Positions 2,897 through 59,800 of a stretch of DNA of 61,890 nt are shown one piece after another. Under the pieces are notes generated by a model that did not search any database, was not told the DNA's origin, and saw only the letters and a list, made by a program, of their open reading frames with translations. How positions within the stretch are numbered: the first letter of the stretch is position 1; each line of letters starts with the position of its first letter. The translations under genes were made by a program, and so were the position numbers. The stretch is from Nitrosotalea sp. (lineage in GTDB: Archaea > Thermoproteota > Nitrososphaeria > Nitrososphaerales > Nitrosopumilaceae): positions 1-61,890 of the forward strand of contig JAHEYZ010000001.1 of NCBI GenBank assembly GCA_023251295.1, read 5' to 3'.

Positions 2897-2906
2897 GATC
2901 TTATTT

Positions 2907-3052
2907 TTTTTATCTTACTGTTAGATTAGTTTGTCTGATTGTTTTATCTTACTGTTAGATTAGTTTGTCTGATTGTTTTATCTTACTGTTAGATTAGTTT
3001 GTCTGATTGTTTTATCTTACTGTTAGATTAGTTTGTCTGATTGTTTTATCTT
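2907..3052. repeat. Perfect 34-bp tandem repeat x4.3 (GTTTTATCTTACTGTTAGATTAGTTTGTCTGATT), non-coding; iteron-like
   Basis: Units at 2907-2940, 2941-2974, 2975-3008 and 3009-3042, plus a 10-nt partial unit. There are no intervening spacers and no ORF. Confidence 0.9.
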
Positions 3053-3263
3053 TAAAGTATCATTGGATTATTTTTAATCTAGTGTTGTTTTTTCTTTAGG
3101 CATTTTATAAAAGGCTGTGCGCACATGTGAACACATAGCGCTTTATATAACGCTCATGTCTGCGCGTAGATTAAAAGGTAAACTAGGTAAACCTTTTTAA
3201 TAATATTTTATACAGCTCAGGAAGCTATATGATCCTGTCCTCTATAAAGGACAGAAAGCCTAG

Positions 3264-3607: not shown

Positions 3608-4975
3608 CTATACCTGTTCCTTCGTGTAATCCTGTACACCTGATTGATCATTCTCTTCATATCCGTATGGCATATCAATAGGGTTTTCTACCTCTTGATA
3701 TGTTGCACCCTCTAATGATTCCTCTGTATTGTCTTCTATCTCTTGGTCAACATTAGATTCCTTTTTGATTCGTTCCTCTGCTTGTAGATCTGCAAACTGC
3801 TCTTCCATTTCTTGCTTGAATAGTTTTTCTTCCCTTGTTAATTCCTCGTCTGATTTTTCTGGTTCAGTTCCTAATTCTCCAAGCGCTACACTCTGAGATT
3901 GTACAGAACCTTTTTTCATATATGTACGTCTTCTCTTTCTTGTTAGATCTTTATCGAGTATCTGATTGACTGTCTTCCAATTGATTTGATTCTGTCTATC
4001 CATCTCACCTAAACTATTCCATATTGAAAGCCTCTTAGTATCAATTACTTTTAGTCCATGCCTTGCAAAGCTATACAATCTAATCATAGACCTTGCTCTG
4101 TCCTTACCATAGGCATCAACGAAATGTTGTACAAGTTCATCACTATTCATGATCCTCTTTGCATTATAATCCTCATCACATATCATACATGAATCTCTTA
4201 GATACACAAAGAAGTGAACTATATTTCCTTCGAGCGCTAGACCCAATCTGAATGGTCGATCAGTATGGTACTTCATCTTCTTTCCTGTCCATCGATCTAC
4301 TTCAAATCTAAATTCATTATTGAACATCATCTGTTGATAGTACCATGCGAAGTCTTTGAACTTCCATCTTGCATGTGGGAAGACATCACTGAATGTATGA
4401 ACCTCTTCCATAGTTATACTGGTCAAGAAAACAAATGGTACATTACGGAAAAATCTTGATAGAGCTTTTGAGTAATGGATGTTCATCATTACTACTACTT
4501 GACCCTTAACATCATGCCTAATGTATGTAAGAGCTTGTGCAATTCTATTAATATCATCCTTGGGCAACTTATCGAGTGCGAACGAAGCATCATCCATAAT
4601 AAGTATGTGCGAAATTCCCTTGGTCAGATTATGTATGATGCGATCAAGCTTCTGAATATCATCCCTGTAAAACCAATGCACTTGGAAGTTTCTCCTTTGA
4701 TGCAACATGTGAACCAGCATTCTTGACCATGTGGATTTTCCTGAACCTGACATTCCAATATTTAATATGCCAAGAAATCCAGTCTTATCAAGATAGTTTA
4801 GCATTCGATCTATCGTTGGTGTTGGACTCATCGATACTGGAATGGGCCATTTCTGCATTGTATTTGGGTCAGTGAAGAGTGTAGTCTTTAATCCCTGATA
4901 CTTTTTAATCAGTAATTGATTCGAAGGTTGTAGTGCAAGATTGCCTTCTACCTTTGGGAACTCTTCGATTGCCAT
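3608..4975 (-). CDS. P-loop NTPase (Walker A/B ATPase) with acidic C-terminal tail; replication or packaging role not resolvable
   Basis: Walker A is NIGMSGSGKSTWS and Walker B is HILIMDDASF. The C-terminus is E/D-rich. Starts 6 nt after the stop of 4981..5298, so it is probably co-transcribed. Confidence 0.8.
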   Translation of the reverse strand: MAIEEFPKVEGNLALQPSNQLLIKKYQGLKTTLFTDPNTMQKWPIPVSMSPTPTIDRMLNYLDKTGFLGILNIGMSGSGKSTWSRMLVHMLHQRRNFQVHWFYRDDIQKLDRIIHNLTKGISHILIMDDASFALDKLPKDDINRIAQALTYIRHDVKGQVVVMMNIHYSKALSRFFRNVPFVFLTSITMEEVHTFSDVFPHARWKFKDFAWYYQQMMFNNEFRFEVDRWTGKKMKYHTDRPFRLGLALEGNIVHFFVYLRDSCMICDEDYNAKRIMNSDELVQHFVDAYGKDRARSMIRLYSFARHGLKVIDTKRLSIWNSLGEMDRQNQINWKTVNQILDKDLTRKRRRTYMKKGSVQSQSVALGELGTEPEKSDEELTREEKLFKQEMEEQFADLQAEERIKKESNVDQEIEDNTEESLEGATYQEVENPIDMPYGYEENDQSGVQDYTKEQV

Positions 4976-4980
4976 AGAGA

Positions 4981-5298
4981 TCAGAACTGCCTTCTGGTTT
5001 GTACATTGGCTACATATTTGGCAACGCTTTCTTCTACCCTAAAAGAAAGCTTACGAAAATAGATCCATGTCTTTTCCAGATTACTAGATTCCTCTGGGTC
5101 ATCCATCCAACTAACTTTATCTTTACTGCCATCATCTAGATCTGATATGTCTGGTCTGGATTCTTCTGGCAACATCGCTAACATATTGTAGATACATGTG
5201 CAAGCGTTATACGGATCGTTCTTGTTAATCATACAAGAGATGTAGGCATTGCGAAGTTGTGACAATGCTGTAGCCACAAGTGCAGATGAACCTGACAT
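4981..5298 (-). CDS. Hypothetical protein
   Basis: ORF track. A TTTATAA box at 5322-5328 and GTACACA at 5307-5313 lie immediately upstream of the ATG at 5298. Confidence 0.65.
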   Translation of the reverse strand: MSGSSALVATALSQLRNAYISCMINKNDPYNACTCIYNMLAMLPEESRPDISDLDDGSKDKVSWMDDPEESSNLEKTWIYFRKLSFRVEESVAKYVANVQTRRQF

Positions 5299-5328
5299 TA
5301 CCTTTTGTGTACTAATACTTTCTTATAA

Positions 5329-5420
5329 ACTCATTTAATTAAAATTTTAAATTTTTTTAAAAAAAATATTTTTTAAATTTTTGAATTTTTCAAATTTTTG
5401 AATTTTTATTTCCAAAATCG
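5329..5420. other. Almost pure A/T tract with a 2x tandem AAATTTTTGAATTTTTC unit; candidate DNA-unwinding element
   Basis: Direct reading shows very few G/C in about 90 nt. The tandem units are at 5375-5391 and 5392-5407. Confidence 0.6.
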
Positions 5421-6008
5421 CTTGCGTTATAAAGAATAAAAATAAAAACATCTCTAGAAGTCTAGTTTTGTGGTTGCAATGGTCTTCGATTCTGGATTCT
5501 ATCATGACTATCTATTATAATATGGAGAAAGTAGAGTAAATTAAGCGAAATTTCGCAAGAAAACAAAGCTTCAAGGCAAAATTAAACAAAGTCCACGTCA
5601 GGCACGATCCTAGAGCTATTTCATGTTGATCAAGATGATTCTATTGTTGTTATTGATATTAGACCTCACTAGCTGGGGGTATAGTACCCTCAGTCATGGA
5701 AAAATGGCATATTTGATAGAAAGTAGTTTATTCACTGCCTAGAATCGTTCTAACCTAGAGTAGCAACTCTTTTCCAGCACTCAGATTAAGTAACCCTTTT
5801 TCCCTACAAAGAAAAAAAGGGGTTTAAGGACACGTCTGACTGGAATAGTCGATTGTCAGATGATTATCTCCTACTTTGTTTTGTATCTAATTAGATACGG
5901 TTCTGTAGTAATCAATTGTTTCGTCTGATAATCATCTTACACTCTGACACACCGTAACATGGTATGAGCTTAAGCTTTTAGCTTATTATGAACTACTTTG
6001 TATCTACT

Positions 6009-19805: not shown

Positions 19806-20360
19806 TTAAGATTCATTCTCCTTTTTGAGCATTGCGTATTCTGGTTCTGACAAGGAAAATTTTGATGCCATTGCTTCATCAGCCCATATATGACGGTCTT
19901 CTACAAAAGAAATGTATTTCCTATCTGTAGAAACATCTGGATAAACTAGAAATTTAAGTTTCCTTCCTTGTATTATCTGATCTGTTTCATACAGCTTGTT
20001 GCCTCTTTCAGATGTATCAACCAACACCGCCTTGGTCTGTTTTACAAATTCATCCTCACCCATTTTTTTTAGTTTCTCCATTCTTTTCTCAATGTTTGCT
20101 GTCCTGATTATACGAAATGCATTTGATCTTAATGCACTAAAAAGCAATACGATACCAGTCATTACTATTGGTATTGTTCCAGATATTGCTCTAACTTGAT
20201 CATACTGTGCCTTTAATTCTGGTGGCATTGCACTTACATCCAAATCTGTAATCGAAGAAAATACTGCACCACTTATGATAAAAACAATTGGTGCGCTTAT
20301 AACACACATTATTAGATATGGCATACTATCTTTGATTATTTCTTTGGGAACGTTAATCAT
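19806..20360 (-). CDS. Membrane protein, tandem paralog 1
   Basis: Shares ...ANIEKRMEKLKKMGEDEFVKQTKAVL...KFLVYPDVSTDRKYISFVE...DEAMASKFSLSEPEYAMLKKENES with 20357..20887. Confidence 0.75.
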   Translation of the reverse strand: MINVPKEIIKDSMPYLIMCVISAPIVFIISGAVFSSITDLDVSAMPPELKAQYDQVRAISGTIPIVMTGIVLLFSALRSNAFRIIRTANIEKRMEKLKKMGEDEFVKQTKAVLVDTSERGNKLYETDQIIQGRKLKFLVYPDVSTDRKYISFVEDRHIWADEAMASKFSLSEPEYAMLKKENES

Positions 20361-20887
20361 GATTCATTCTCTCGTTTCAACATTGAATATTCACTTGATG
20401 ATAATGAAAATTTTGATGCCATTGCTTCATCTGCATCAGTAAAATTCTCTCTTACAAATGAGATGTATTTTCTATCTGTTGAAATATCTCCATACACCAA
20501 AAACTTCATTGTTCTTCCCTTTACGACATTTTCTGTACTATACAATTGATTCCCCCTTTCAGATTGATCTAATAATATAGCCTTGGTCTGTTTAACAAAC
20601 TCATCTGCGCCTAGTTTTTTTAACCTCTCCATCCTTTTTTCTATGTTTGCTGTCTTGATTATTTGTAATGCATTGCCTCTGAAAAACATTGGAACTACTG
20701 GTAGAAATATTATAAATGGCAATGCAAGAAATAACATAAATGTCGTATTATCCATCAATTCAGGATTCTCTTCTTCAACCTGCACTGGTATCATTGCAAT
20801 TAAAATCAGGAATGGTATTCCAACTATCATTGGAACAATCGAACCACCTGAATCCTTTATGATCGTTCTAAAAATTTTGATTGCCAT
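20357..20887 (-). CDS. Membrane protein, tandem paralog 2
   Basis: The C-terminal domain is nearly colinear with that of 19806..20360, while the N-terminal TM region differs. Confidence 0.75.
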   Translation of the reverse strand: MAIKIFRTIIKDSGGSIVPMIVGIPFLILIAMIPVQVEEENPELMDNTTFMLFLALPFIIFLPVVPMFFRGNALQIIKTANIEKRMERLKKLGADEFVKQTKAILLDQSERGNQLYSTENVVKGRTMKFLVYGDISTDRKYISFVRENFTDADEAMASKFSLSSSEYSMLKRENES

Positions 20888-21894: not shown

Positions 21895-22125
21895 CTATTG
21901 TCTTCCACCGAGGGCCCCAAATATTGCAAATAGTGCAAAGAACAATGCAACAGGAAGTATTCCTATAACAGTCCATGCTGTATCTTTTGCGTTCTGACAT
22001 TCAGTTGCGCCTTGGCCAGTTGGACAATGTATCGAATCGCTAACTTCTGCGAAGATAAGTATGCCAATAAGCAACGCAACGGCCGCGCCAATGAAGGCCA
22101 GAATAAAACCTAAACTTAATACTAT
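21895..22125 (-). CDS. 76-aa two-TM Cys-stapled hairpin protein (minimal family member); no canonical start, ATA aligned to the paralog ATG
   Basis: Hand translation (I)VLSLGFILAFIGAAVALLIGILIFAEVSDSIHCPTGQGATECQNAKDTAWTVIGILPVALFFALFAIFGALGGRQ. An in-frame TGA lies 2 codons upstream. An SD-like GGGGGTGA lies 6 nt upstream of the ATA. Not in the ORF track. Confidence 0.6.
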   Translation of the reverse strand: MVLSLGFILAFIGAAVALLIGILIFAEVSDSIHCPTGQGATECQNAKDTAWTVIGILPVALFFALFAIFGALGGRQ

Positions 22126-22177
22126 TTCAGTTCACCCCCTTTAGTTTCATAACCATTGCATTGCTTTGTAACGTACA

Positions 22178-22255
22178 CTCTTATAAAAGAAAACTTTAGG
22201 TCATATTCAGTCATAGAATGTGTTTTCGTCTGACAAAAAAGTTCTTTTATAAGAG
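22178..22255. promoter_or_regulatory. Back-to-back (divergent) class-A promoters
   Basis: The minus-oriented copy is CTCTTATAAAAGAAAA at 22178-22193. The plus-oriented copy is TTCTTTTATAAGAG at 22242-22255, followed by TCTAGA as in the copies at 29661-29670 and 30845-30852. Confidence 0.6.
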
Positions 22256-28070: not shown

Positions 28071-28091
28071 TCTATTATCTATGATTTTGGA

Positions 28092-28122: not shown

Positions 28123-28824
28123 TTACTGATTAATTTTTGATTTGCGGATCTGAAAAAATGAATTAATTACAAAAAGTATTAATCCTAATCCTAGGATTAA
28201 TTCAAAAAATTCAGAATCATAATTTATAAAAAAACCAAATGTTACCCTACCATTAATAAATTCAACAGGAACATACTTCATTGTCAATACTGTAATTAAT
28301 ACAGAACTAAAATAACTAAATAGAAATTTAGGTGGTAACGCATATTTGATAAATAGTTCGTTTTTGGCAAAAAATTTAATTTTTGGAAATATTAACCAAG
28401 CAAATGAACCCAAGAATGAAGTTATTATATAATAAAAATGTCTATATGGTTGCATTGAATCTAAATTATGTATGCTTATTTCTCTTTGTGTATTAGCAGA
28501 GAACATTAGATTATCAAATCCTAGAATACGTTGACCATAGCTAATTTCTTCTAATCCTGTAATCAAAAAAGTTATTGATAAAATTATAAATATTGAGAAT
28601 GCACCTTTGTTTTTTTTCATATATTTTAACATGAATATTGAAAAACCGAATGCCATAAAATAAAATAATGCAGTAAGATTTTCAATCAGATTATCTTCAT
28701 TAGTTAAAGATCTATAAAATGGATCATCAATACCATTTAATATTTTGTTTAAAAAAACAATCCCGATTAATACGATTGGAATTATAAAGATAATCCAGTG
28801 ATTTAGTTTCATCTTATTTTTCAA
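28123..28824 (-). CDS. Polytopic membrane protein (about 6-7 TM), unusually AT-rich; track start is TTG, and an ATG at 28812 is likely
   Basis: Multiple hydrophobic segments. Sampled lines are about 25% GC, versus about 35% in the neighbours. Confidence 0.7.
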   Translation of the reverse strand: MKNKMKLNHWIIFIIPIVLIGIVFLNKILNGIDDPFYRSLTNEDNLIENLTALFYFMAFGFSIFMLKYMKKNKGAFSIFIILSITFLITGLEEISYGQRILGFDNLMFSANTQREISIHNLDSMQPYRHFYYIITSFLGSFAWLIFPKIKFFAKNELFIKYALPPKFLFSYFSSVLITVLTMKYVPVEFINGRVTFGFFINYDSEFFELILGLGLILFVINSFFQIRKSKINQ

Positions 28825-28890
28825 TAGTTTTTATTTATTTTTAATTATTTAATCATGCTGGTTTTTGTTAAAAATTAACTATGTTTTTAT

Positions 28891-29646
28891 CTATGATTTT
28901 GGAATCACAAAATTAAACAACGTGAACAAACCGAAGAAAAGGGCAACTGGCATTATTCCTATCACCGACCATGCAATATCTTTGGCCGACTGGCACTGTT
29001 CAGAACCAGTTTCTCCTTCACCAACACTACCGCCTGTAGCAGTTACTTTCAATAACATATCTTCTATGCCAAACTGTTGAAAGAAACCAGATAGGGGATC
29101 TTCTTGATGCATCCATAAATGACCTGAACTAATATCTGAGGTTGAACTTAGAAATTCAGCTTCACTATCCCAATTTTCCATGTGTAATGCTACAAATGTA
29201 TTTGGATCATTTACTGTTACAGGTGGAGTGAAAAGAAATGTAAAGTTAACATTACTACCACCAGCTAATTGTTCCGTATTATCTGATTCTGCAACTAATG
29301 TTGATGTATCTATATCTGTTACAGCTCCTATCCAAATTTGTGATTCGATTGTTCCAGTAGTTTCACCAAATGTATTAATTCCATTTACTGTAACTGACGT
29401 TATTTGTTGTCCTGTAGTTGAAACTAACTGACCAATCCATGTATTTGTAGCTCCACCATTTATTGTACTATCTGATGATTCTGCTAGTGTATCAAATGGT
29501 ATATCTGAACTGCCACCGCCACCGCCACCGCCACTTGAAGCAGGACATTCCAATGAATCTGCTACTTCACCAAAAGCAAAAATACCTACTAGCAACCCTG
29601 CACCAGATCCAACTAATGCCAATACTAGCGCCAGTGATACTACCAT
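28891..29646 (-). CDS. Two-TM Cys-stapled hairpin-family protein carrying a roughly 170-aa Gly/Thr/Ser-rich ectodomain cassette
   Basis: N-terminus MVVSLALVLALVGSGAGLLVGIFAFGEVADSLECPASSGGGGGG. C-terminus GSEQCQSAKDIAWSVIGIMPVALFFGLFTLFNFVIPKS. Both ends are shared with 29689..30828. Confidence 0.85.
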   Translation of the reverse strand: MVVSLALVLALVGSGAGLLVGIFAFGEVADSLECPASSGGGGGGGSSDIPFDTLAESSDSTINGGATNTWIGQLVSTTGQQITSVTVNGINTFGETTGTIESQIWIGAVTDIDTSTLVAESDNTEQLAGGSNVNFTFLFTPPVTVNDPNTFVALHMENWDSEAEFLSSTSDISSGHLWMHQEDPLSGFFQQFGIEDMLLKVTATGGSVGEGETGSEQCQSAKDIAWSVIGIMPVALFFGLFTLFNFVIPKS

Positions 29647-29670
29647 TACTGGTTTTTTATCATGTCTAGA

Positions 29671-29686
29671 CTCTTATAAAAGAAAA
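29671..29686 (-). promoter_or_regulatory. Class-A promoter motif
   Basis: Exact motif, preceded on the plus strand by TCTAGA. The ATG at 29646 is 32 nt from the TATA centre. Confidence 0.7.
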
Positions 29687-29688
29687 TT

Positions 29689-30828
29689 TTATGATTTTGG
29701 AATCACAAAATTAAACAACGTGAACAAACCGAAGAAAAGGGCAACTGGCATTATTCCTATCACCGACCATGCAATATCTTTGGCCGACTGGCACTGTTCA
29801 GAACCAGTTCCATCACTTCCACCGCTACCTGTGGTTGTTACAACTCCATTTGCAGTTGTATCATCAAAACTATAATATGCAACTCTTGTTGATGGTGATA
29901 TTCCGAGTGAAGATACACTTGCACCAGAACCACTATTCCACATATTATCAATGTCAGTATCACTTAAGATATAGCCATTCCAAATTGCAAGGTCATCAAC
30001 CATGAAAGTATCTTCAATGTTTGAACCACCACTGTTATGATCTCCATCACTGCCAATTGTTAAAAAGTCAATCGGTGGGTTATTATTACCAGTCCAATCA
30101 TTTTTTGTGCCACCATTGTTGGCTGTTGCATCCCCACGACATCCTTCAACTACTCCACCATTACCTAAGTCACTTGTTCCATCAAGGCAATACCTAAAGT
30201 TTGCATTTCCCGTTGTAATTGATTTGTCGTATGTAAATGTCAATAAGTGCCATTGACCATCATCTGGTGGTTCGCTTGGAGTTGGTGACATAAAAGCTGA
30301 GATTTTTTGACTGTTATCATCCTCAATTATTGGGCGAAGTCTTCCTGATTCTGTTTCAATAAATAATCCATCTGTCTGACCGACTGGTGCAAAGTTTGAA
30401 AGTAAATGATATTCATTACTACCAACCACATCGCCCTTCAACCAAAACGAAATACTAATTTCATCAGATCCAGTTGCTTGACCTGACAAAAACCACCAAT
30501 CAGAAGGTGTAGATCCAAGATAAATTTCACCGTTAAGTGCGCCACCGCCACTTGCAACTCCTTCCTGTACTACAGCCTCATTAATTTTTCCTGTCACTGA
30601 TGGCAAGAAATCAACAATGACTTCCGACTCTGCATAAACCGCATCCTCAGCAGAACCCAAAGTTCCCAAATTATCATAACTTGTAACATTTGTAACAGAA
30701 ATCAATGTACTTCCACTTGAAGCTGGACATTCCAATGTATCAGAAACTTCACTAAAAGCAAAAATGCCGATTAGTAACCCTGCACCAGATCCAATTAATG
30801 CCAATACTAGCGCCAGTGATACTACCAT
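29689..30828 (-). CDS. Two-TM Cys-stapled hairpin-family protein carrying a LamG / concanavalin-like lectin ectodomain cassette
   Basis: Same N- and C-terminal blocks as 28891..29646. The central region SISFWLKGDVVGSNEYHLLSN...GQWHLLTFTYD...VDDLAIWNGYILSDTDIDNMWNSG matches the Laminin_G_3 pattern. Confidence 0.85.
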   Translation of the reverse strand: MVVSLALVLALIGSGAGLLIGIFAFSEVSDTLECPASSGSTLISVTNVTSYDNLGTLGSAEDAVYAESEVIVDFLPSVTGKINEAVVQEGVASGGGALNGEIYLGSTPSDWWFLSGQATGSDEISISFWLKGDVVGSNEYHLLSNFAPVGQTDGLFIETESGRLRPIIEDDNSQKISAFMSPTPSEPPDDGQWHLLTFTYDKSITTGNANFRYCLDGTSDLGNGGVVEGCRGDATANNGGTKNDWTGNNNPPIDFLTIGSDGDHNSGGSNIEDTFMVDDLAIWNGYILSDTDIDNMWNSGSGASVSSLGISPSTRVAYYSFDDTTANGVVTTTGSGGSDGTGSEQCQSAKDIAWSVIGIMPVALFFGLFTLFNFVIPKS

Positions 30829-30852
30829 TACTGGTTTTTTATCACATCTAGA

Positions 30853-30868
30853 CTCTTATAAAAGAAAA
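30853..30868 (-). promoter_or_regulatory. Class-A promoter motif
   Basis: Exact motif. The ATG at 30828 is 32 nt from the TATA centre. The motif overlaps the last codons of ORF 30869..31021. Confidence 0.7.
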
Positions 30869-31021
30869 TTAAATTCTTGGAAAGTCCTGTTTGAATCTCT
30901 TTTTCTTCTGACCTCTTCGTAAAAGCCTCTTACAGACTTTGCATTTGATCTCTGTCTTTGGGTAAACTAATTCACATAATCGACAATAATTATTGACTGC
31001 ATAATCTGGTTTTTTTGCCAT
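30869..31021 (-). CDS. 50-aa basic zinc-ribbon protein (below cutoff)
   Basis: Hand translation MAKKPDYAVNNYCRLCELVYPKTEIKCKVCKRLLRRGQKKKRFKQDFPRI. TAATG overlap with 31021..31242. Confidence 0.5.
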   Translation of the reverse strand: MAKKPDYAVNNYCRLCELVYPKTEIKCKVCKRLLRRGQKKKRFKQDFPRI

Positions 31022-45448: not shown

Positions 45449-48400
45449 CTATCCGAAAAGGCTTTCATCAAACAAAGGATTTTCGCCCTTCTTTAATTTT
45501 GATCTTGTTTTGGCTACTTGACCACCGCCACCGAAATAACTTTCAGAAATATTTCGCCTTGGTGATTTTCCCAACACATCTGACACTTCGAATATTTCAC
45601 GTTCACTCTGTACCTGAACTCCTAGTCCTCTCTCTACCCTTCCAAATGGTGTCTTAGCAACATCATATACAGTGAAATATTTTCTTGATCGTTGTGATAA
45701 TCCTTCACCTTCATTTCCACCACCACCAAATATGAATCCCCCACCTCTTGGTGGTTTACCTCTTGCTGGTGTTTCTTCTGGAAATCCAAAAATTTGTTCC
45801 TCTCTTAATCTTTGTCGCTGTACTGGTGTTTGAACTGTCCTTCCTCTGGTTACTGTAGGTGTTTCTGTTTTAAATAATTCATCATATCTATACTGTTCCC
45901 TTGCTTTTACACTTGGAATTTGTTTTTGTCCAGTCTGACCTTTTTGTCTTGGTAATTGTGATGATACTTGTGCATTTTCAAAAAACAAGTCTTCTTGTTG
46001 TCCAGTGAATCCTTTTTGTCCTGTATCTGCTGTTACCTGTGGTATCAATCCTGCACTAATTCCTGCCGAAGTTCCAAATCCTGCAAGTGGTAATAACCCA
46101 CCACGAATCTTTCCTTTTGGTTTTGGAAATTTTTCTTTTCCAAATCCTCTAAGTTCTTCTGGTAATCCTTCTTCCCCTGCTTTTGCTTTTCCTTTGAACT
46201 TTGGTGGTCTTTCTTCTGCCTTACCAATTGATTTTAATCCCTTACCTCTAGGTGGTTGTAATTCTTCCAATACCTGTGCTGATCTTGTTCCCTTTGTTGT
46301 TTTGCTTCCTTCACCAAATTCACCAAACTCACTTGCACTTCTCTCTGCTTTTGTCGCTTTTGTTGCTTTACCAACCTCTCCTGACTCTTCACCAAATATT
46401 CTTGTGACTCTTGATAAATCATCTGATGGTGCTGTTGGGTTTATTCTTGCTCTTCCACCTTTTGTTTTTTCTACAAATCCACCAATACCTTCACCGAGTC
46501 TTACTGTTGTCGCTCTTCCACCCCTCGCAATTATTCCTTCAACTGATGTTTTTCCTAAACCAACAAATGGAAAACCAATATCAGCCTGTCCTACTGGCAA
46601 GTCTTGAATTGGTGTTCTTGATAATCCCAATCTTTGCAATTCTGGATTATTTATTTCTTTGATAGCTTTTTGTTCTCTAAATAATCTTGTATTGTCTGTA
46701 CCTGCTTCTTGTATTCTTTCTAATGGATCAATTCTACTTGTAGGTGATTTTATTCTTGATGGTGCTTTTGCACCTCTTGGTAGTTCTTGCGCAAATGCTC
46801 TTTCATTTGCAAATGCTTGTGCATAATCTGTTTCTTGTGGTTTTGCTGGTCTTATTTTTCCTCTTGGTTTTGAAATAGTATATGGTTCTTCTGATGTGAA
46901 TGCCCGTTCTCTAGCAAATGATCTTTCATAATCTTCCTCTGTTGGTTTTGGTGGTCTGCTCTTTAATTTTTCAGTTTTAGTTGCACTAGGTAATTTTGAT
47001 TCATAGAAACTTGCTGGGTTAATATCTTCACGAAATGTTTGACCTAATCTTATTTCTGCTTGTGTTGCTCTTGTTTGCAATGAACCAACTTTTCCTGCAA
47101 CTGTCTTTGGTACAGCTTTAACAGCAGTCTTTACACCTGTTAACGCTTTTCCTAAACCACCGATTGTCTTTACACCTAATGAACCAGCTTTGTAAATTCC
47201 TGCTGGTAAGAATAAAATTGCCTGTGCTGTTATATCTCCTGCTGAGTATGCTGGTCGTTCCTTGATAGTTTTTCCTGCACCTTCAAAGCCTTTTCTTGCC
47301 TCTTCTGTAAATGAACCCTGTCCAGTAGCTTGTTTGATAGCTCCACCAATTGTTCCTGCAAATACTTGTTCAGATGGAGTTTGGAATGTTGGTCTTTCTT
47401 CTATCTGTCCTTGTGAAACAAATGAACCAAAGTTTTGTATATTAATTAATTCATTCTGTAATGATTCACCAAACCCTGTTCCATATTCTGATACTTGTTT
47501 GACTGCGCCTTTAACTCCTGTTTTCTCTCCTAATGTATTAATAAATTCGCCTGTTCTTGAAGTGTCTTTGTAACTTCCACTTGGGCTAAATGGATTGTAG
47601 TTTTTCTTTGGTTCTGGTGGTGGCGGTGGAATTGTTTTTCCTTTTGCTGTTTTTTGAACTGACTGGTATTCTTCTGCATAGGCTTCTGGTATTATTGATC
47701 CGCCAAAAATTGATGCTTGGTTAATTTTTCCCGCAGGTGCGTTTCCTGCGTATGGATTTGTACCTGAATACAATCCTTTTGTAGTTTTTCTTTCTGGTGG
47801 TGGTGGCGGTGGTAACTGTTCTTGTTCTCCACTAATCAATGATGCTGGTGTAAGGAATGGAATACCGCCAATTGATTGAGGTGCTTCTGTCTTTTTTGGT
47901 TTTTGAGGGCCTTGAATCGGTTTTTGTGATACCTGACCTAACGGTTTGTTTGCAGTTACAATTATCTGTCCTGTTGGTTTTGATGGTGGCTGGTATCCAA
48001 ATGATTCGTAAATTGAAAAGTCTGGTTCATTCAGTCTTTTTTGAACTTCTGCTCTTCCTTCTGTTGTTTTTAATGCACCTCTTGTAGATTCTCTTTCTAA
48101 TCCAAAGCTTTCAAATCCTGCTGAACCTATACCACCAACTGTTCCACTTACTCTTCCTAATTCATCCTTATACTCAAATGGTAGAACGCCTTTTGTTTTT
48201 CCAAAATTTGTGATTATTGTTGGTTCTTTTATTTGTCCAGCTTGTTTTGCTTCTAAAAATTTAATTCCTAATTCTGGACTTCCTTTATTATCTGCTGGTC
48301 TTACATTCAATGGTTTTACTATATCTGCTTGTACTACATTTAATGCTCTGAATGTGTCTTGTTCTCTTCTTGTTTCAAGGTTTAGTCCTTTTTCCAGACC

Positions 48401-49633
48401 TGTTGCTGGTGTTACTTGTCGTGTTGTAACTTTTCCAGTTAATGGGTCAACTACCTTTTGAGTTTTTCCAATCTGTTCGTTTCTTCCAAGGATTTGATCT
48501 TCTTGTAGTCTTTCAATTGCCAATGATCCTACTGTCTGTTGTTGTGGGCTTCCACCTCTCTGTTCAAGCAATATTTGTTTTCTTGATTCCTTGTTTGGTT
48601 CTGGTAAAATTCCTTGTAGTGGTAATTCTTTTCGTGAATATGTGCTTGTTTTTTCTGCGGTTGAAATTCCACCGATGAATGATGGGCCACCAACTTCAAC
48701 ATTTTTTGTAATCTGTTGTCTTTGTGCTGGTGGATTTGTTATTGGATTGGATACAATTCCTTCTGCACTTGTCGCTCTTGCAAGTACATCTGGATATTTT
48801 TCTTTAGCTTTTTGCTGTGCTTTTGTTGTCGCTTCCTTTTGTGCAAACTCTGACCCAAATCCACCGAATGGTAAACTTTTTGCAATTTGTACTTGTTCTT
48901 TTAATGCTTGTTGTTGGGATTCTTTTGATTGAAATCCACCAAACTCTGTAGTGATTCCTTTTCCTGATTTTGGTGCTGGTTGTGCGTATGCTTGTTGTGG
49001 TTTTGCAATATTTGTAATAGCTTTTACTTGTTCCTCAATTGAACTGAATCCACCAAATAGTCCTTGCTGTTGTAATTTTTGCTGGTTCTTTTGTGTTTCT
49101 TGAATTACTGCTTGTCTTGCTGGTTCACTTGCTTGTATTGATTGCTGTCTTGTCAGTTGTGCGGAATCAACATATCTTGTTGGTACTGCAATTGATGAGA
49201 TCTTTGGTGCTGGTGCTGAAACTCTTATTGGTGGTGGTGGAGTATATGCCCTTCCTGTTACTATCGGTGATGGTTTTGATACTGAGGAAATTAGTGGTGC
49301 TGGTGCTGAAACTCTCACTGGTGTTGGAGTTGTTACTTTTGGTGGTGTTGTTGCCTTTCCACCACTAGGGCCAGTTTTTATTGCTTGCGCTCTTGTCTGA
49401 CTTGCTGTTCTTTGTGGTGTAAAACTTGTTGGTTGTACTACTGGATTTCTTGCAGAACTAGGGCCACTAATTATTGCTTGCGCTCTCTGTGAACCTGTTG
49501 GAGTTGAAGGTTTTGGTGGTGGTGCTGAAACTTTGACTGGTGCTGGCGCTGAAACTCTTACTGGCGTGACTGATGCGCTTGGTGATGCGCCAGATTTTCT
49601 GCCTGTTGGTGTTAAAGATTTACCCTGTGCCAT
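45449..49633 (-). CDS. 1394-aa low-complexity (P/G/Q/K/T/S-rich) protein with internal repeats; probable structural or matrix-type protein
   Basis: Has PVRVSAPAP-type repeats (x4 in the first 160 aa), RAQAI(I/K)xGPS x2, FGG(F) motifs x5, PPPPP runs, and duplicated ...P(K/Q)(P/E)T(E/D)(ED)Y..(S/A)FA.ERAF... Ends in ...NPLFDESLFG. Confidence 0.85.
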   Translation of the reverse strand: MAQGKSLTPTGRKSGASPSASVTPVRVSAPAPVKVSAPPPKPSTPTGSQRAQAIISGPSSARNPVVQPTSFTPQRTASQTRAQAIKTGPSGGKATTPPKVTTPTPVRVSAPAPLISSVSKPSPIVTGRAYTPPPPIRVSAPAPKISSIAVPTRYVDSAQLTRQQSIQASEPARQAVIQETQKNQQKLQQQGLFGGFSSIEEQVKAITNIAKPQQAYAQPAPKSGKGITTEFGGFQSKESQQQALKEQVQIAKSLPFGGFGSEFAQKEATTKAQQKAKEKYPDVLARATSAEGIVSNPITNPPAQRQQITKNVEVGGPSFIGGISTAEKTSTYSRKELPLQGILPEPNKESRKQILLEQRGGSPQQQTVGSLAIERLQEDQILGRNEQIGKTQKVVDPLTGKVTTRQVTPATGLEKGLNLETRREQDTFRALNVVQADIVKPLNVRPADNKGSPELGIKFLEAKQAGQIKEPTIITNFGKTKGVLPFEYKDELGRVSGTVGGIGSAGFESFGLERESTRGALKTTEGRAEVQKRLNEPDFSIYESFGYQPPSKPTGQIIVTANKPLGQVSQKPIQGPQKPKKTEAPQSIGGIPFLTPASLISGEQEQLPPPPPPERKTTKGLYSGTNPYAGNAPAGKINQASIFGGSIIPEAYAEEYQSVQKTAKGKTIPPPPPEPKKNYNPFSPSGSYKDTSRTGEFINTLGEKTGVKGAVKQVSEYGTGFGESLQNELINIQNFGSFVSQGQIEERPTFQTPSEQVFAGTIGGAIKQATGQGSFTEEARKGFEGAGKTIKERPAYSAGDITAQAILFLPAGIYKAGSLGVKTIGGLGKALTGVKTAVKAVPKTVAGKVGSLQTRATQAEIRLGQTFREDINPASFYESKLPSATKTEKLKSRPPKPTEEDYERSFARERAFTSEEPYTISKPRGKIRPAKPQETDYAQAFANERAFAQELPRGAKAPSRIKSPTSRIDPLERIQEAGTDNTRLFREQKAIKEINNPELQRLGLSRTPIQDLPVGQADIGFPFVGLGKTSVEGIIARGGRATTVRLGEGIGGFVEKTKGGRARINPTAPSDDLSRVTRIFGEESGEVGKATKATKAERSASEFGEFGEGSKTTKGTRSAQVLEELQPPRGKGLKSIGKAEERPPKFKGKAKAGEEGLPEELRGFGKEKFPKPKGKIRGGLLPLAGFGTSAGISAGLIPQVTADTGQKGFTGQQEDLFFENAQVSSQLPRQKGQTGQKQIPSVKAREQYRYDELFKTETPTVTRGRTVQTPVQRQRLREEQIFGFPEETPARGKPPRGGGFIFGGGGNEGEGLSQRSRKYFTVYDVAKTPFGRVERGLGVQVQSEREIFEVSDVLGKSPRRNISESYFGGGGQVAKTRSKLKKGENPLFDESLFG

Positions 49634-53850: not shown

Positions 53851-56800
53851 TCAAAAGTATCTCTTACCAATGAATGTTCCAATCGCAGTTATCAACACAA
53901 TCAATGCCCAGAACCCGCCAGTAATCAATGGATCTCCCGTCAATGGATCTGGGAAGTAACCTAGTACACCCATTGCACCGATCGCAACTGCCATGAATAT
54001 TATTCCTGTGCTTGCGCTTCTTCCTGTCCAAATCGCGGCCAAAAATAGGATGAATATGAATGGAACTGGAACACCTAGGAAATCTCCAAGGTTGTTTGTG
54101 AATGCTACAACTGCTGTTGTTCCGTTTGTAAGACCAAATGATGTAAATGATAGAATCTGGTTGTCATTATCCAATGGATCAAAACATGTTACATAGGCAT
54201 TGTTAAATGATTTTACAGGGCCGAATACAGTAGTCCAGCTACCTACATTTGAAATATTGAATGTCTGAATTGGTGCAAACAATCCTTCTGTAAGTTCACA
54301 ATCAAGACTCCAAGGTGCAGGTTGTCTTATGAATTGTACATTAATTCCTGTATATGTTGCATTTCTCATGTGAGTAAAGAATAGGTTAGAGCTTGGATCA
54401 AACAATACAGTTGCATATATTGTTCCAACTGTTGTTGAATTTGTACCAGCACCGTTTTGGAATCTTGTTGTTCCATTGATCAATACCAATGTTCCTGCTG
54501 GTTCATCTATTGTATAGAATGTTGACCATGATTGTGTAACAGTTCTTGGTGTTGATACTATTTGTGGAATATTTTCTATGAATGTTCCATTCTGTGTTAT
54601 TCCTACTTGATATAGATTACATGTTGGGAAGCATTCATTTACAGTTCCATTAAAGTCAATTTTTAATACATTTCCTGCCACACTTGAATTTGTAATTGTG
54701 ATGTTGCCAATTTGTGGGATTAACGTAGTGCTTGTTATCTCTGGCAATGTATATTGACCGTCTTGGTCTATTGTCTGTCCTTTTACCCTGTACGTATTCG
54801 TAATTTGGTTATGTGGGCTGAAATCTGAGTAAGAAGTCGTATTACCTTGGACTGCAATTGTCATCCAAGTTACATTATCTGTGTTTAATCTCTGGATTGT
54901 ATAGAATGTGATTTCACTGTTTGGTGTTCCAACTGGATTCGACCATGTTAAATCTACATTATATGGGAATACTGGATCAAATATGCCAAACAAGTTTTCA
55001 GGTTCTTGTATTGTATCAAATGTGCTTGCTGTCAAATTGGCTGAATATGCACCTGTTCCGTAAGTGTTCTTTGATGCGATGCTATAGATGTAATATGTAT
55101 CCTGTAACAATCCTGTATATTGTTTGTTTGTTGGTGTAGCTGGATGGTTTGGTGTAACTGTAACAAATGTTCCACCGATATTTTGGGCTTGTTTTATTGA
55201 ATATCCAGTAATTGGTACTCCACCTGTATAAACTGGTGAATCCCAATCAACGTCTATCACACTTACTCCGTTTGTTGTAAATGAAAGATTGATTGGTGGA
55301 TCTGGAACTCCCTGTGTCTTGTCATTGTCTTCATTTGAGAATACTCCTGTTCCTACAAGATTTGTTGCACGAACCTTATAATTATAAATTGTATTTTGAG
55401 TCAATCCAATATCGCTGTAGCTTAGTGTAACTCCTGAAACATTTGCTACAAATACAAATCCACCACCTACTGGTGTTTCCCTGTAAATTGAATACGATGT
55501 GATTCCACCGCCAACATAAGATGGACTCAACCATGATAGATTGATTTGTACATTGTTGAATGTTACAGCATTAAGTGTTAGTGGTGCTGATGGAACTGTG
55601 TATGTTGTTGCACTTGCTATGTTTGAATATGCACTTGATCCTGCACCGTTGTCTGCTCTAACCCTGTACTCGTATGTATTTCCAGATAATAATCCTGTAT
55701 CATTATAGTAAATTGTTGGTGCTGGGATTGTTGCAATTGTAACAAATCCTGTGAATCCTACATGTTTTCTCTGCAATACAAAACTTGTTGGTGGATCTCC
55801 ACCTATACCTGCTACCCACTGTGTATTGATTGCTGAACCTGAAATGGTTGTTGCTGTTAAGCTTGTTGGTGGATTCGGTGTCATTACTGGTGTAGTTACT
55901 ATTGAAAATTCATTTGAGAATGGGCTATACCCAATTGCATTTACAGCCCTAACCTTGTATGTGTAATTTGCACCTGAAATTACTGTTTCATCCTCGTAAA
56001 TTGCTGTTGCATTTGTGGTATTTGCTAAGAATGAATATGCACCAACTCCTTGCTTCCTTTGGAATTGATAATGGGTAATATCTACACCTGTAGATGGACT
56101 GCCTGTTCCATTGTCAACTGGTACATCCCAATTCAAGAACACATGTTCCAAGTGTGGAATTATAACTCCCATTGCACCTGTTAGATTTGCTGGTGCTGTA
56201 GGAATATCATTCGTTGTCACTAGCTGGAATGCCTCAGAACTATTTCCACCACCACTTACTGCAAGTACCGAGTAATTGTATAATGTATTTACTGATGGGA
56301 AGTAATCAGTGAATTGGCTTACAATTGGATTTCCAATTTCATTTCCATCTCGTTTTACTGCATAACTTGTCGCTGATCCTACATCATCCCAATCAATTGC
56401 TACGGTTGCATTAACTGCTGTCGCTGTGAAATTTGCTGGTGTATTTAGTGCAAATGAACCATTGTCATAATATCCTGCATCCCAAAAGTCTGCAACAGAA
56501 GATTCAATATTTCCACGCAAGTTAGTTACAGTATTTCCACTGTCAAAATCCCAAATACCAATAGTTGAAATTGTAACGTTATCAATATCTAAAAATGCAC
56601 TTGAACTTCCTGCTGAATCATCTATTGTTAACATTACAGTAACAAAATCTTCTGTTGAACCTGCCCAATTAATTGACGAATTTGTCAATGTTCTAATTTC
56701 GTCAAGAATTTGGATTGTTATTGATGTTGATCCCAATACTGCACCACCCTGAGATACCAATCCAACATTCAAAGGAAAATCTGGATTATTCTCTGTATTA

Positions 56801-59800
56801 TATGCACCATCTAAAACTTGTAATGTATAACTTGCAGGTGCGCCATCACCAGTACCAGCTAGCCCACTCCATCCAACAGAAATGTCTGAACCAAATATTT
56901 CTGTTTTGTTAAATGATTTGAAAAATCTTCCTTGACCAAACGCAAAATCTGTTCCTACACTTCCACCTGAATCAGCCCTGATTTGATATGTTTTACCAAA
57001 AAATGTTGGTGTTGCACCTGTGGTTATAAAGTCATATAGTGGATCAAATGGGTTTGAACTAATCCCAGAATAATTATCAACTTCCCTGAAATACCAACGC
57101 GAAGATGTACTATTTATTATTGCACTTGAACCATCATCTTGGACTGGTTCTTTTGTAAATGCAATATTTGAACCGTTTACTGCAACACCTATGTCATTCT
57201 CACCTCTAACTCTGTAGAAGTATGTTAAACCATCCTCTAATCCTGAATCTGTAAAGTTTGTTTGTGGTGCTGTCACATTTGCTAAAAATGTAAAGTTTTC
57301 AATTCTAATATTCATTGCAAGATCTCCACCAGCAGATGAAAATGAATATGGAAACGTATCACTAAACGCTGTTTTTGCTAATCCATTAACTTCATCTGCT
57401 GTTGACTTGCGAAACTTTGTATCTGTTGTAACTGTTCCTGTCATATTTGCACCTACATGATATGTTGTTCCACCGTCTAATTTTACAGGTGGATCGAAGA
57501 AAAATGATTGCACATTAAATGATGATACAAATAATGGAGTTATTGTACAAGGACTTATTGTTGCATTTGAACTTGCAATTAAAGTTGAACCACTACTTGA
57601 CCAAATACTTCCACGAAGCAACCCAGAACCAGTACAACCAGCATCTTGCGTAATAGACATGTCTATTCTTGTTACGTTTACGTCAACAGTTGGCGTAATT
57701 TCCTGTGCTACTGCAAATTGTGTACCGCTCGTTCCAGTTAAAGTTGTTGGAGAACGATCCTGATGATAAATAAGGAAATCATCTGAACTTAGTCTAGCAA
57801 GATCTCCACTGGTTCTTTCTATAAGATAAAATGTTGGCGAACCCATTGGTTCAGTCCAATTCATATAAATTGAATTTGTTATTGGAAATACCTGCAAGTC
57901 GTCAATTGTATCTGGTGGACTGATATTTTCTGCACTTGCAGTTGAGTTATCTCCACAATCAATTGCATTACATCCAGCAACTTTGTACGTATAACTTCCT
58001 GATGTTACGCTTGTATCATTATAGTAATTGATTGCTGGATTATTTGTTGCTAATAATGTATATCCTGAACCAGCATCCCTGTAAATATTATAACTTGTTA
58101 GATTTAATCCTGTACTTGGATTGCCTTCTCCATTATTATATGCCAGTGCATTCCATTGTAAATTAACTTTCAATGGGCTTTGTACTATCACAGTTTGTAA
58201 GTTTTGGACTTGATCTGGAACATCATTTGTCAATACATTATTTGAATATCCAGCAGTTCCATTTTCAACTCCATTATCACCATAAACTCTATACTGATAA
58301 TCAGTTCCACGTTCCTGAGTTGTATCTATAAATAATGTAATTGGTTCTGCACCATCAAGATATAATTTGAAATTATCAATTGAATAGTCAAAATCATCAC
58401 TATCTGATCCAGAACCAAGATTGCTTACAACCAGATATTTCAAATTATTGTATCTTTCTGCACCGCCATTAAATGAAAGGCTTAATGGTAACTGGCATCC
58501 AGCAGTTCTTTGTTCACATGTAAATTCAGTAACACTTACTGTAGTTCCAGATTTTGTCATGTTAAAGTATCGTTTTACATTATTATCTGATACTGCCGAT
58601 TCAATTGTTGTATCAATTGCATCAAATGTAGAACAATTTGTTCCATCTGCCAGTGCTAATGTTCCTTGAATTGCTATTGTTTGACCACCAACATATCTAA
58701 AACAAACATGATCTGCTGTTTCACTTGGATGCTTTATTGCACTAACTAATGAGATCAGTTCATTCTGTCCATTAAATACAGAGTTTAGTGATGTTTGATC
58801 CCAGAGTAATGAAAAGTCACCATCTCCATTAACATCTGTTGCCTGTACTCCTAATGCAGACAAATCAAAGCTAAGGTAATTAGTTCCAGAATTACTCCAT
58901 TTGGTATAAAGGTCATCAGATGTTGAGTTTACTCCACAAATGTTATCAGCTCCACCTGTTCCACCTGTACAATTTGTTGTATTTGGAATCCAACTTATGT
59001 TTGCAGTTGCATTATCAGGATACTCTGAAAATCCTTCTGTGAATGCCAATCCAAAGTCTGTATCTCCTACTACTGTGAAATTTGCATTTAGTGTGGCTGA
59101 TGGTACTGTGAAATATCCATAATCATAATCACCCCCAAAAGTAGGGCCTACCTCGTTTGTAAGAGATGCACCTGCCATACTTTGGTAAATATATGGTTCT
59201 CCGTTGTTTGTGAAGTTAACTGATAGAAGGTTAAGTACTGGAAAGCTTGTTAGGATTGACAAGTCATGCAATTGCATTACTATTCTAACATAACTACTAT
59301 AACTTCCAACTGAGAATGTTTTTGTTTGTGTTCCACTATTAGCTACAAAACCCATTGTTGCCGAAATTGGAGAACATCCGCTAAGTGGAGCTGTTGAAAA
59401 TGCTGGTCTTGTACCTAGACCACAATTGTATAATGTTACAGTACCAGAAATTCCTGTTGCAAGCGGGCCATCAAATGTTGCTTTTACTTCCAAGTCTGTG
59501 TTTGCTACATCTGTTGCGTTGAAATCTTTCCAGATATAACAGTCAGCCCATTGGATGCCTACAGGATGACTAACACCGATACCGCCAGAAATTGATGGTG
59601 TACATAGTGTTCCAGCACCGCCACCTACTCCTGAATCAAGTGGGAACTCATTCCAACTCCATGTTTCATTTACAGATGCAAAATTGCCTCTTTCAATCCA
59701 ATACTTGTCAACTGCTGGTTCTGATACAACTGAATCCCAATCAACTATTACCGTATCAATATCTGCTGTTGCTTCTACATTATCTGGTGCTGGGATTGTA

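Follow-up and report, generated by a model that had tools for sequence, protein, structure and literature searches.

Two adjacent genes with common ends and unrelated centres

The 61,890-nt stretch of DNA analysed here (the window) is taken from contig JAHEYZ010000001.1 of the Nitrosotalea sp. assembly GCA_023251295.1, and carries two adjacent genes, called A and B below, that encode proteins with nearly the same ends around unrelated centres. The features of the pair are as follows, with the basis of each gene call in brackets (ORF, open reading frame; AF2, AlphaFold2 model).

28891..29646 (-): gene A, 251 aa; two hydrophobic helices around a beta-rich "A-type" ectodomain (ORF, AF2)
29689..30828 (-): gene B, 379 aa; N-terminal hydrophobic helix, LamG/ConA-like ectodomain, C-terminal hydrophobic helix (ORF, Pfam)
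30713..30870 (-): 5' shared block of gene B; promoter-like motif at 30851-30870, 22-nt leader, codons 1-39 (helix 1 and the ...LECPASSG stem)
29531..29688 (-): 5' shared block of gene A; promoter-like motif at 29669-29688, leader, codons 1-39
29690..29809 (-): 3' shared block of gene B; TGSEQCQSAKDIAWSVIGIMPVALFFGLFTLFNFVIPKS, holding the stem Cys and helix 2
28892..29011 (-): 3' shared block of gene A; the same as 29690-29809 at 120 of 120 nt
29810..30712 (-): centre ("cassette") of B, 903 nt; LamG-type module
29012..29530 (-): centre ("cassette") of A, 519 nt; A-type beta-sandwich between Gly-rich linkers

A repeat search of the window paired 29531-29688 with 30713-30870 over 158 nt (92% identity, 13 mismatches), and 28892-29031 with 29690-29829 over 140 nt at 94%, the first 120 nt of which aligned base by base without a mismatch. 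A first-pass annotation, made from the sequence without database searches, had described the same blocks, 158 nt at 92% and 120 nt identical, and the search and the alignment both agree with it. No other dispersed repeats in the window are as long or as similar, and an exact repeat of 120 nt cannot be due to chance. At the protein level, residues 1-39 (MVVSLALVLAL.GSGAGLL.GIFAF.EV.D.LECPASSG) and the last 38 residues (GSEQCQSAKDIAWSVIGIMPVALFFGLFTLFNFVIPKS) are common to A and B. Codons 1-39 differ by five synonymous and five non-synonymous codon changes. The 519-nt and 903-nt centres had been called unrelated, and no similarity between them was found by BLASTP.

Two other samples, ERZ27301951 (a 9,440-bp contig) and ERZ27280214 (contig L007), each gave an independent assembly with B followed by A and the same neighbouring genes, so that the blocks are not the assembly artefact that the first-pass annotation had allowed for. 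Over 3,151 nt that include both junctions, L007 and the window are 99.75% identical; a 6-nt indel between them fits two additional Gly codons in the linker of gene A on L007. Protein B was found in exactly identical form on three contigs; a search with protein A matched only nine proteins.

The shared ends form a hairpin that also occurs alone

The scaffold formed by the shared ends is also encoded on its own in the window, as a protein of about 75 aa. This gene was missed in the first-pass annotation and is the key to the identity of the flanks.

21895..22125 (-): minimal hairpin gene, about 75 aa; IVLSLGFILAFIGAAVALLIGILIFAEVSDSIHCPTGQGATECQNAKDTAWTVIGILPVALFFALFAIFGALGGRQ (motif scan of the window, AF2)

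The minimal protein has the layout IVLSLGF...CPTGQGATEC...PVALFFALFAIFGALGGRQ, with two helices and a 10-residue Cys...Cys turn. AF2 places the helices at residues 4-30 and 39-72 and an 8-residue turn at 31-38 (lengths 27, 34 and 8 residues; predicted local distance difference test score, pLDDT, 83). Since the window holds a bare hairpin with the same ends, A and B represent this hairpin after insertion of a domain in its turn. The insertion, 195-323 residues long in the two proteins, lies between the conserved "...ECP" and "...EC/QC..AK" stems. A copy of the promoter-like motif (22176-22195) precedes the minimal gene, as it does A and B.

The minimal protein has 89 homolog clusters. Its helices are nearly unchanging, with 27 invariant columns among 46 diverse sequences; its turn is variable and rich in N-x-S/T sequons. 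One close homolog is annotated from a metagenome-assembled genome of Nitrosopumilaceae. We consider the minimal protein to be the stand-alone scaffold and a putative major capsid protein (MCP). Its gene has a strong Shine-Dalgarno-like run, GGGGGTGA, and a leader of about 50 nt, compared with the 22-nt leaders of A and B; at its start (22123-22139) the window has ATA where almost all homologs carry ATG.

Size and distribution of the hairpin family

A degenerate DNA pattern for the C-terminal helix was searched in IMG/VR, in 185,579 reference genomes and in the JGI metagenomes. IMG/VR gave no match, and all 27 matches in the reference genomes were unrelated and due to chance, the hairpin family not being found there. 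In the JGI metagenomes the pattern occurred on at least 120 stretches or contigs, many with 2-6 matches per contig. The family is thus known only from metagenomes. A DNA search of 50,697 phage records with the 5-kb region found no match, and a tblastn search of the same records with the minimal protein gave chance matches only; the set contains the Nipumfusiviridae virus NYM1, which is too divergent or was masked.

We counted 148 family ORFs in the JGI loci and the window. Turn length, taken from 134 ORFs, is bimodal: 20-34 aa in 87 of them, 194-817 aa in 47 and nothing in between, as predicted by domain insertion and not by gradual divergence. A filter-free phmmer search of 1.84 billion representative proteins with the minimal protein of the window returned 155 clusters (at 50% identity) with E<=1e-3, 67 of them minimal and 69 split by an insertion of 46-804 aa. 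The top-scoring matches carry an insertion, and both of their halves are 76-89% identical to the minimal protein. Two very long proteins from this search, P0151 and P0152, were rejected as compositional false positives.

Minimal genes occur in one to three tandem copies per locus (two or three in many loci) and long genes in arrays of up to six, the longest on contig L052. Both kinds stand together on single short contigs such as L010 and L044. The long genes of one lineage (L055, L125, L116, L040 and others) have flanks that match each other at 95-100% identity and have essentially the sequence of the minimal protein. Of the insertions shown for the Cys-containing subfamily, most are bordered on one side or both by a Gly-rich linker.

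Other subfamilies of hairpins with insertions (P0142-P0241) are without the Cys pair and have other conserved junction motifs, namely ...MLQTFGDP... / ...QVPxxFxxASNIAF, and ...EAMALTLP... / ...QQQVDTFNNALNIG. P0129 consists of a hairpin followed by a basic C-terminal extension of 375 aa, and P0136 of a Cys-rich N-terminal domain with CxxC motifs followed by a hairpin. The 5.5-kb contig L004 encodes three members (within 1-273 and 4619-5506), one partial and NHL/beta-propeller-like and two LamG-type, which are parted by the membrane-protein gene described below and by unrelated minus-strand genes; arrays are therefore not always contiguous.

The inserted domains

The centre of B matches Pfam Laminin_G_3 (PF13385) at residues 117-243 with 32.2 bits, above the gathering score of 27.6 (E 1.5e-7), which bears out the LamG-type domain proposed in the first-pass annotation. 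According to BLASTP, 26 other family members have centres homologous to that of B. The centre of A has no Pfam match. In the AF2 model of A, a helix (5-31) is followed by strands forming a beta-rich domain at 60-181 (pLDDT 70-82) and by a second helix (214-247). Foldseek gave weak matches of this model to families of carbohydrate-binding modules (CBM), CBM16 being the best (E 1.8e-3), with CBM22 and CBM4 among the others, at E-values of 2e-3 to 2e-2 and TM-scores of about 0.4-0.5. The model hints at a CBM-like beta-sandwich. PHROGs gave nothing useful on A, B or their neighbours.

A Pfam scan of 74 long family members found Laminin_G_3 four times and BNR_2 three times (best E 1.2e-11), besides NHL, SBBP, Mala_s_1-like and DUF6923 domains. 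When the centres of the window were mapped by BLASTP onto 40 distinct long proteins, the modules appeared in the orders A, B, B-A, A-B, A-x-A-B, x-B and B-x, and several of these proteins had centres related to neither A nor B. The domains recognised by Pfam belong to lectin-like beta-sandwiches and beta-propellers, folds that adhesins and receptor-binding proteins commonly use. The earlier idea of a constant membrane-hairpin scaffold with exchangeable ectodomains is supported.

Flanks and centres have different histories

Comparison of gene A with its counterpart on the related contig L156 shows that the parts of the gene have not diverged together. At the nucleotide level the centre is 92.9% identical; the two flanks stand at 65.8% (N) and 63.2% (C), and the membrane-protein gene beside A at 82.9% (Fisher p 4e-20 for the centre against the flanks and 4e-7 for the centre against the neighbouring gene). 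Identity switches at about codons 46-60 and 196-210, within the Gly-rich linkers. Because the flanks are only 63-66% identical between the window and L156, they could not have provided the homology for that exchange.

Discordance of the same kind is seen when five relatives are compared. The flanks of the window's A are nearest to those of L001 (76% and 83% at the amino acid level), whose centre is the most distant (45%), and its centre is nearest to that of L156 (91%), whose flanks are 61-66% identical. Protein B and LG07, a member from contig L009, share 68% in the centre and 55% in the flanks. Within L009, LG07 and its genome-mate LG09 have 49% identical centres and 100% identical flanks. 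Judged from these alignments, the flanks track the genome and the centres the type of module. The first-pass annotation had named as an outcome that would speak against it that related genomes always carry the same two cassettes, with flanks and centres equally diverged; this is not what was found, since both the cassettes and the rates of divergence differ between relatives.

The content of the arrays also varies. Contig L155, whose shared segments match those of the window at about 90% identity, carries a further member with a third type of centre (P0007), placed between a conserved 50-aa gene and B; L156 has another family member (278 aa) after the membrane-protein gene, and L001 has only an A-type gene at the A/B site. 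In L155 both paralogs start with MVL (GTT CTG), and in the window both start with MVV (GTA GTA), so that concerted evolution is visible on a small scale. The C flanks of A and B differ at 0 of 120 nt and the N flanks at 12 of 117 (p = 1.6e-4), which indicates that the C flank was homogenised separately and recently, by conversion. Contigs L116 and L125 show the same asymmetry between C and N flanks.

Homogenisation is nevertheless not the main cause of the likeness between flanks; a structural module under selection comes first. In the six-gene array of L052 the C flanks of any two genes differ on average at 11.4 of 31 codons, and all of these differences are synonymous, with not one non-synonymous change. 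The flanks of L009 behave likewise, about a third of the codons differing, all synonymously. In view of these synonymous differences we rejected ongoing gene conversion as the cause of flank identity everywhere. Within a lineage, purifying selection on the flank helices is near-absolute; from one lineage to another the helices differ. Such a pattern is expected if each lineage has its own partner that the helices have to fit, the simplest candidate being the cognate minimal protein.

The first-pass annotation had taken the conserved flanks for recombination handles that allow cassettes to be swapped. Recombination at the junctions and gain and loss of whole units are indeed visible, but in the L156 exchange the flanks are too divergent for such a role and the breakpoints lie in the linkers. 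Recombination or homogenisation is likewise not what chiefly conserves the flanks, as the synonymous-only differences in L052 point to purifying selection.

A putative display system on a spindle-virus-like element

Our preferred explanation, to which we would give a probability of roughly 0.55, is that A and B are paralogs of a capsid or membrane hairpin that display exchangeable lectin-like domains on a Nitrosopumilaceae-associated, spindle-virus-like element. It builds on what is observed directly, namely the architecture, the derivation from the minimal hairpin, the types of domain, the mosaic histories, the gain and loss of array members and the selection on the flanks. That the hairpin would be a shell protein of virions, that the domains would be displayed on particles and that they would bind host glycans are steps beyond this.

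In such a system the two helices of A and B would insert in the host membrane or pack in the capsid lattice, like the minimal protein, and the inserted domain (LamG in B, the CBM-like beta-sandwich in A) would thereby be displayed on the outer surface. It would sit on a flexible Gly tether, its base stapled by the Cys pair through a disulfide across the turn, and would most likely bind glycans of the host surface and so act in adsorption or host range. Several paralogs with different lectin-like domains could give a multivalent adhesion surface that is easily re-equipped. Diversification may proceed by ordinary recombination, with centre modules exchanged at the junctions of linkers and flanks, for which the low-complexity (GGN)n linkers could serve, and with whole promoter-hairpin-domain units added or removed by unequal crossing-over on the tandem direct repeats, which comprise the flanks and the promoter motif common to them; a dedicated machine would not be needed. 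Flanks would occasionally undergo gene conversion, and purifying selection would preserve the capacity of the helices for co-assembly with the minimal protein of their own lineage.

The closest known counterparts are the hairpin MCPs of spindle-shaped archaeal viruses. VP1 of SSV19 (PDB 7XDI) is a curved hydrophobic alpha-hairpin of 84 residues, with helices at 15-44 and 54-83; its termini line the inside of the shell and the loop between the helices forms the outer capsid surface (PMC9351363). The predicted MCP of NSV1 (Thaspiviridae) has 81 aa and two hydrophobic helices (PMC8491892). For the putative MCP of Nipumfusiviridae, itself only predicted, the turn is predicted to be exposed and glycosylated (PMC10866085). 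In its AF2 model the minimal protein has the size and the two long helices joined by a short turn by which hairpin MCPs of spindle viruses are recognised. It shares with these proteins a length of about 75-100 aa, two hydrophobic helices, a short turn with N-glycosylation sequons and one to three paralogs per genome, together with a hint of a Nitrosopumilaceae host lineage. With the Nipumfusiviridae proteins it also shares a Cys on each side of the turn, and the two pairs align. An hhalign comparison with these putative MCPs gave a probability of 55% (E 1.2e-4) over 59 columns, in which helix 1, both Cys and the start of helix 2 were aligned. The putative MCP of NYM1, ORF10 (89 aa), has the same layout as the minimal protein: helix, Cys, sequon-rich turn, Cys, helix. 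The profile match of the hairpin to putative Nipumfusiviridae MCPs is suggestive, though no proof.

Several points weigh against this explanation. The link of the hairpin to any known capsid protein is neither experimental nor statistically firm. A profile of the hairpin had no match in the PDB at E<=10, and Foldseek found none at E<=0.001 in the PDB or BFVD and no spindle-virus MCP among the weak matches, a method that discriminates simple helical hairpins poorly. No solved MCP is significantly similar to the hairpin in sequence or fold; the one match is that of 55% probability to the profile of the Nipumfusiviridae proteins, and PHROGs gave nothing significant for the hairpin. The genes common to the window and NYM1 (an MT-A70 methyltransferase, an fn3 region and a P-loop NTPase) are generic, for which reason we have downgraded the idea of a kinship with Nipumfusiviridae through shared genes; NYM1 has no insertion-bearing paralog. 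Known small spindle viruses have genomes of 27-38 kb, and the element, which appears to measure about 93-95 kb, is some three times larger. The AF2 model of A is weak overall (mean pLDDT 57), so that its CBM-like fold is a hint only, and ligand binding by the centres is suggested by their domain type alone. Finally, the sequence by itself does not separate a location in the virion from one in the host membrane.

In its functional logic the proposed system would work like the modular receptor-binding proteins of tailed phages and might be called a natural counterpart of phage display. The tailed-phage proteins likewise combine a constant part on the particle with a swapped lectin, CBM or propeller part, and have mosaic histories and several paralogs. 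They differ in that their anchor is a soluble N-terminal adaptor, whereas here it is split over both sides of the domain and forms a hydrophobic hairpin; they also derive from tail fibres, and the carrier here is apparently derived from a shell protein. Insertion and decoration domains of capsids, such as the tower loops of double jelly-roll (DJR) proteins and the Ig-like domains of the HK97 fold, also show a foreign domain on the outside by means of the coat protein, and in filamentous-phage display (pVIII, pIII) a minority of decorated subunits co-assembles with undecorated ones. The fold and lineage of these are different, and here we have a natural multigene family with many alternative domains. 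In the searchable literature we found no description of this family or of MCP-type hairpins with a domain of 200-800 aa in the turn; paralogous MCPs and longer turns have been described.

A further and more tentative proposal, which we rate somewhat below even odds, is that the element belongs to an unrecognised lineage of large (about 95 kb) spindle-type viruses associated with ammonia-oxidising Nitrosopumilaceae. Their shell would be made partly from MCP paralogs with lectin or beta-propeller domains grafted in the turn. Each genome would thereby hold a natural capsid-display array with as many as six genes or more, and the domains would be determinants of host range traded between viruses as cassettes.

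The interest of these genes lies mainly in archaeal virology and nitrifier ecology. Little is known of the viruses of ammonia-oxidising archaea, which are key nitrifiers in sea and soil, and host recognition by spindle-type archaeal viruses has yet to be explained outside the Sulfolobales. If the preferred explanation is right, the family provides candidate host-recognition proteins for a widespread, uncatalogued group of viruses (at least 120 metagenome contigs, none in IMG/VR) and a new route to receptor-binding proteins, in which domains are grafted into the turn of a shell protein; the PVALFF helix motif would then be a simple handle to fish such elements from metagenomes. The family is also a natural case where purifying selection on an assembly module and recombination of a displayed module can be separated quantitatively.

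Alternative explanations

The most serious alternative is that the hairpin is a membrane anchor and nothing else, and that the long proteins act on the host surface, for example in superinfection exclusion, cell-cell adhesion or surface remodelling, rather than as parts of a particle. Two hydrophobic helices and an outward, Cys-stapled, sequon-rich loop would suit any membrane hairpin, and the lack of significant similarity to solved capsid proteins fits this too, as does the lack of recognisable capsid, portal and terminase genes, by which the element could be plasmid-like. The helices, however, are nearly invariant, beyond what a simple anchor needs, and this fits tight packing in a lattice. 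Tandem minimal copies without an ectodomain have no obvious function as surface proteins, and the family was not found in reference cellular genomes. We therefore regard a pure anchor as unlikely, though deserving of real weight; it also overlaps with the display explanation, because virion proteins of budding archaeal viruses cross the host membrane anyway.

Plain tandem duplication followed by divergence, with flanks kept alike by selection only and no exchange of cassettes, agrees with the strong purifying selection on the flank peptides, with their many synonymous differences and with the tandem position of the genes. It is very unlikely in view of centres that differ in fold or family (LamG and a non-LamG beta-sandwich here, BNR and NHL elsewhere), of modules that occur in several orders, and of discordant rankings of centre and flank similarity, most clearly in the comparison with L156, where a 93% identical centre stands between flanks of 63-66% and beside a neighbouring gene of 83%.

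Programmed variation, by which a shufflon, antigenic-variation cassettes or a diversity-generating retroelement would switch ectodomains within a population, is suggested at first sight by repeated flanks around variable centres and by the strain-level difference in array content. The swapping of cassettes put forward in the first-pass annotation is indeed seen as exchange at the level of the family, but a switching device is hard to credit. Each copy is a complete ORF with a start codon and a promoter-like motif of its own, and the repeats found are all direct, none being inverted. Pfam scans of the 79 window ORFs revealed no invertase, integrase, reverse transcriptase or recombinase, and the arrangement does not differ between two assemblies made independently for the same strain.

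We give as little credence to the minimal hairpin being a conjugative pilin of a plasmid, of the VirB2/CedA1 type, with the long forms as pilus adhesins. VirB2-like pilins are also hydrophobic helical hairpins of about 70 aa, but in VirB2-type pili the loop lines the lumen, where an insertion of 200-800 aa has no room, and Pfam scans of the 62-kb window found no VirB4/VirD4-type ATPase or conjugation genes. Collapsed or chimeric assembly, which the end of L007 inside the C-flank repeat (a typical assembly break) might suggest, can be dismissed: the same gene order was assembled in three samples, in one of them on a 9.4-kb contig long enough to cover A, B and the genes beside them, L007 is almost identical to the window across both junctions, and the same architecture occurs on at least 100 unrelated contigs.

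The element and neighbouring genes

The window has a GC content of 33% and almost all of its genes on one strand, and no tRNA genes were found in it. Recognisable functions include an AAA_5 ATPase (1134-2363, about 20 kb from the minimal hairpin gene), an nSTAND3 NTPase, an R2K ATP-grasp protein, two HTH_45 proteins, an MT-A70 methyltransferase, an HNH nuclease and a weak match to a glycosyltransferase. Pfam scans of the window ORFs recognised no HK97 or DJR capsid protein, portal or terminase. The source contigs reach 93-95 kb, and the element is likely viral.

The pair A/B is flanked by a membrane-protein gene that recurs with the family, and copies of the promoter-like motif are spread over the window.

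28123..28824 (-): gene of a 233-aa multi-pass membrane protein; adjoins long hairpin-family genes in every related locus
Orthologs of the 233-aa gene: L001 9215-9904, L003 1864-2685, L004 1516-2199, L156 839-1540, L157 2688-3386, L158 3799-4521
Copies of the promoter-like motif: 7152, 12188, 22176, 22238(-), 28090, 29669, 30851, 35853, 41653, 51720

The position and orientation of the 233-aa gene vary between loci. The mean column identity of the protein is 82%, with the motifs GLEEISYGQR, QPYRHFYY and NYDSEFFE. It has no match in Pfam, PHROGs or the PDB, and none of its 42 homologs bears an informative name. The protein may serve the hairpin family as an accessory factor. A 16-nt direct repeat, TTATCTATGATTTTGG (28075-28090 and 28887-28902), which is a copy of the 3' end of gene A, brackets this gene together with the promoter that follows it. 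L001 has no membrane-protein gene at this site, and the repeat looks like the footprint of an insertion or rearrangement.

The promoter-like motif is a 20-nt sequence, GACTCTTATAAAAGAAAATT, with ten copies in the window at no more than three mismatches, where 0.02 are expected by chance. It contains TTTTATAA about 30 nt upstream of starts, a placing that would fit archaeal TATA-type promoters. The first-pass annotation had counted a promoter as part of the 5' block of A and B, but this 20-mer occurs genome-wide and is not specific to the pair. The ten copies may define one class of co-regulated genes.

Tandem repeat arrays lie at the window start (7-156, 15-nt unit) and at 2905-3074 (34-nt unit, four copies). 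Two adjacent paralogs, at 19806-20360 and 20357-20887 (184 and 176 aa), are about 73-80% identical at the nucleotide level over parts of their length. There are also two giant ORFs. One, at 45449-49633 (-), encodes 1,394 aa and has no match at all. The other, at 53851-61848 (-), encodes 2,665 aa with fn3 repeats at about residues 1900-2280 that match tail-fibre PHROGs of phages, and resembles ORF9 of NYM1.

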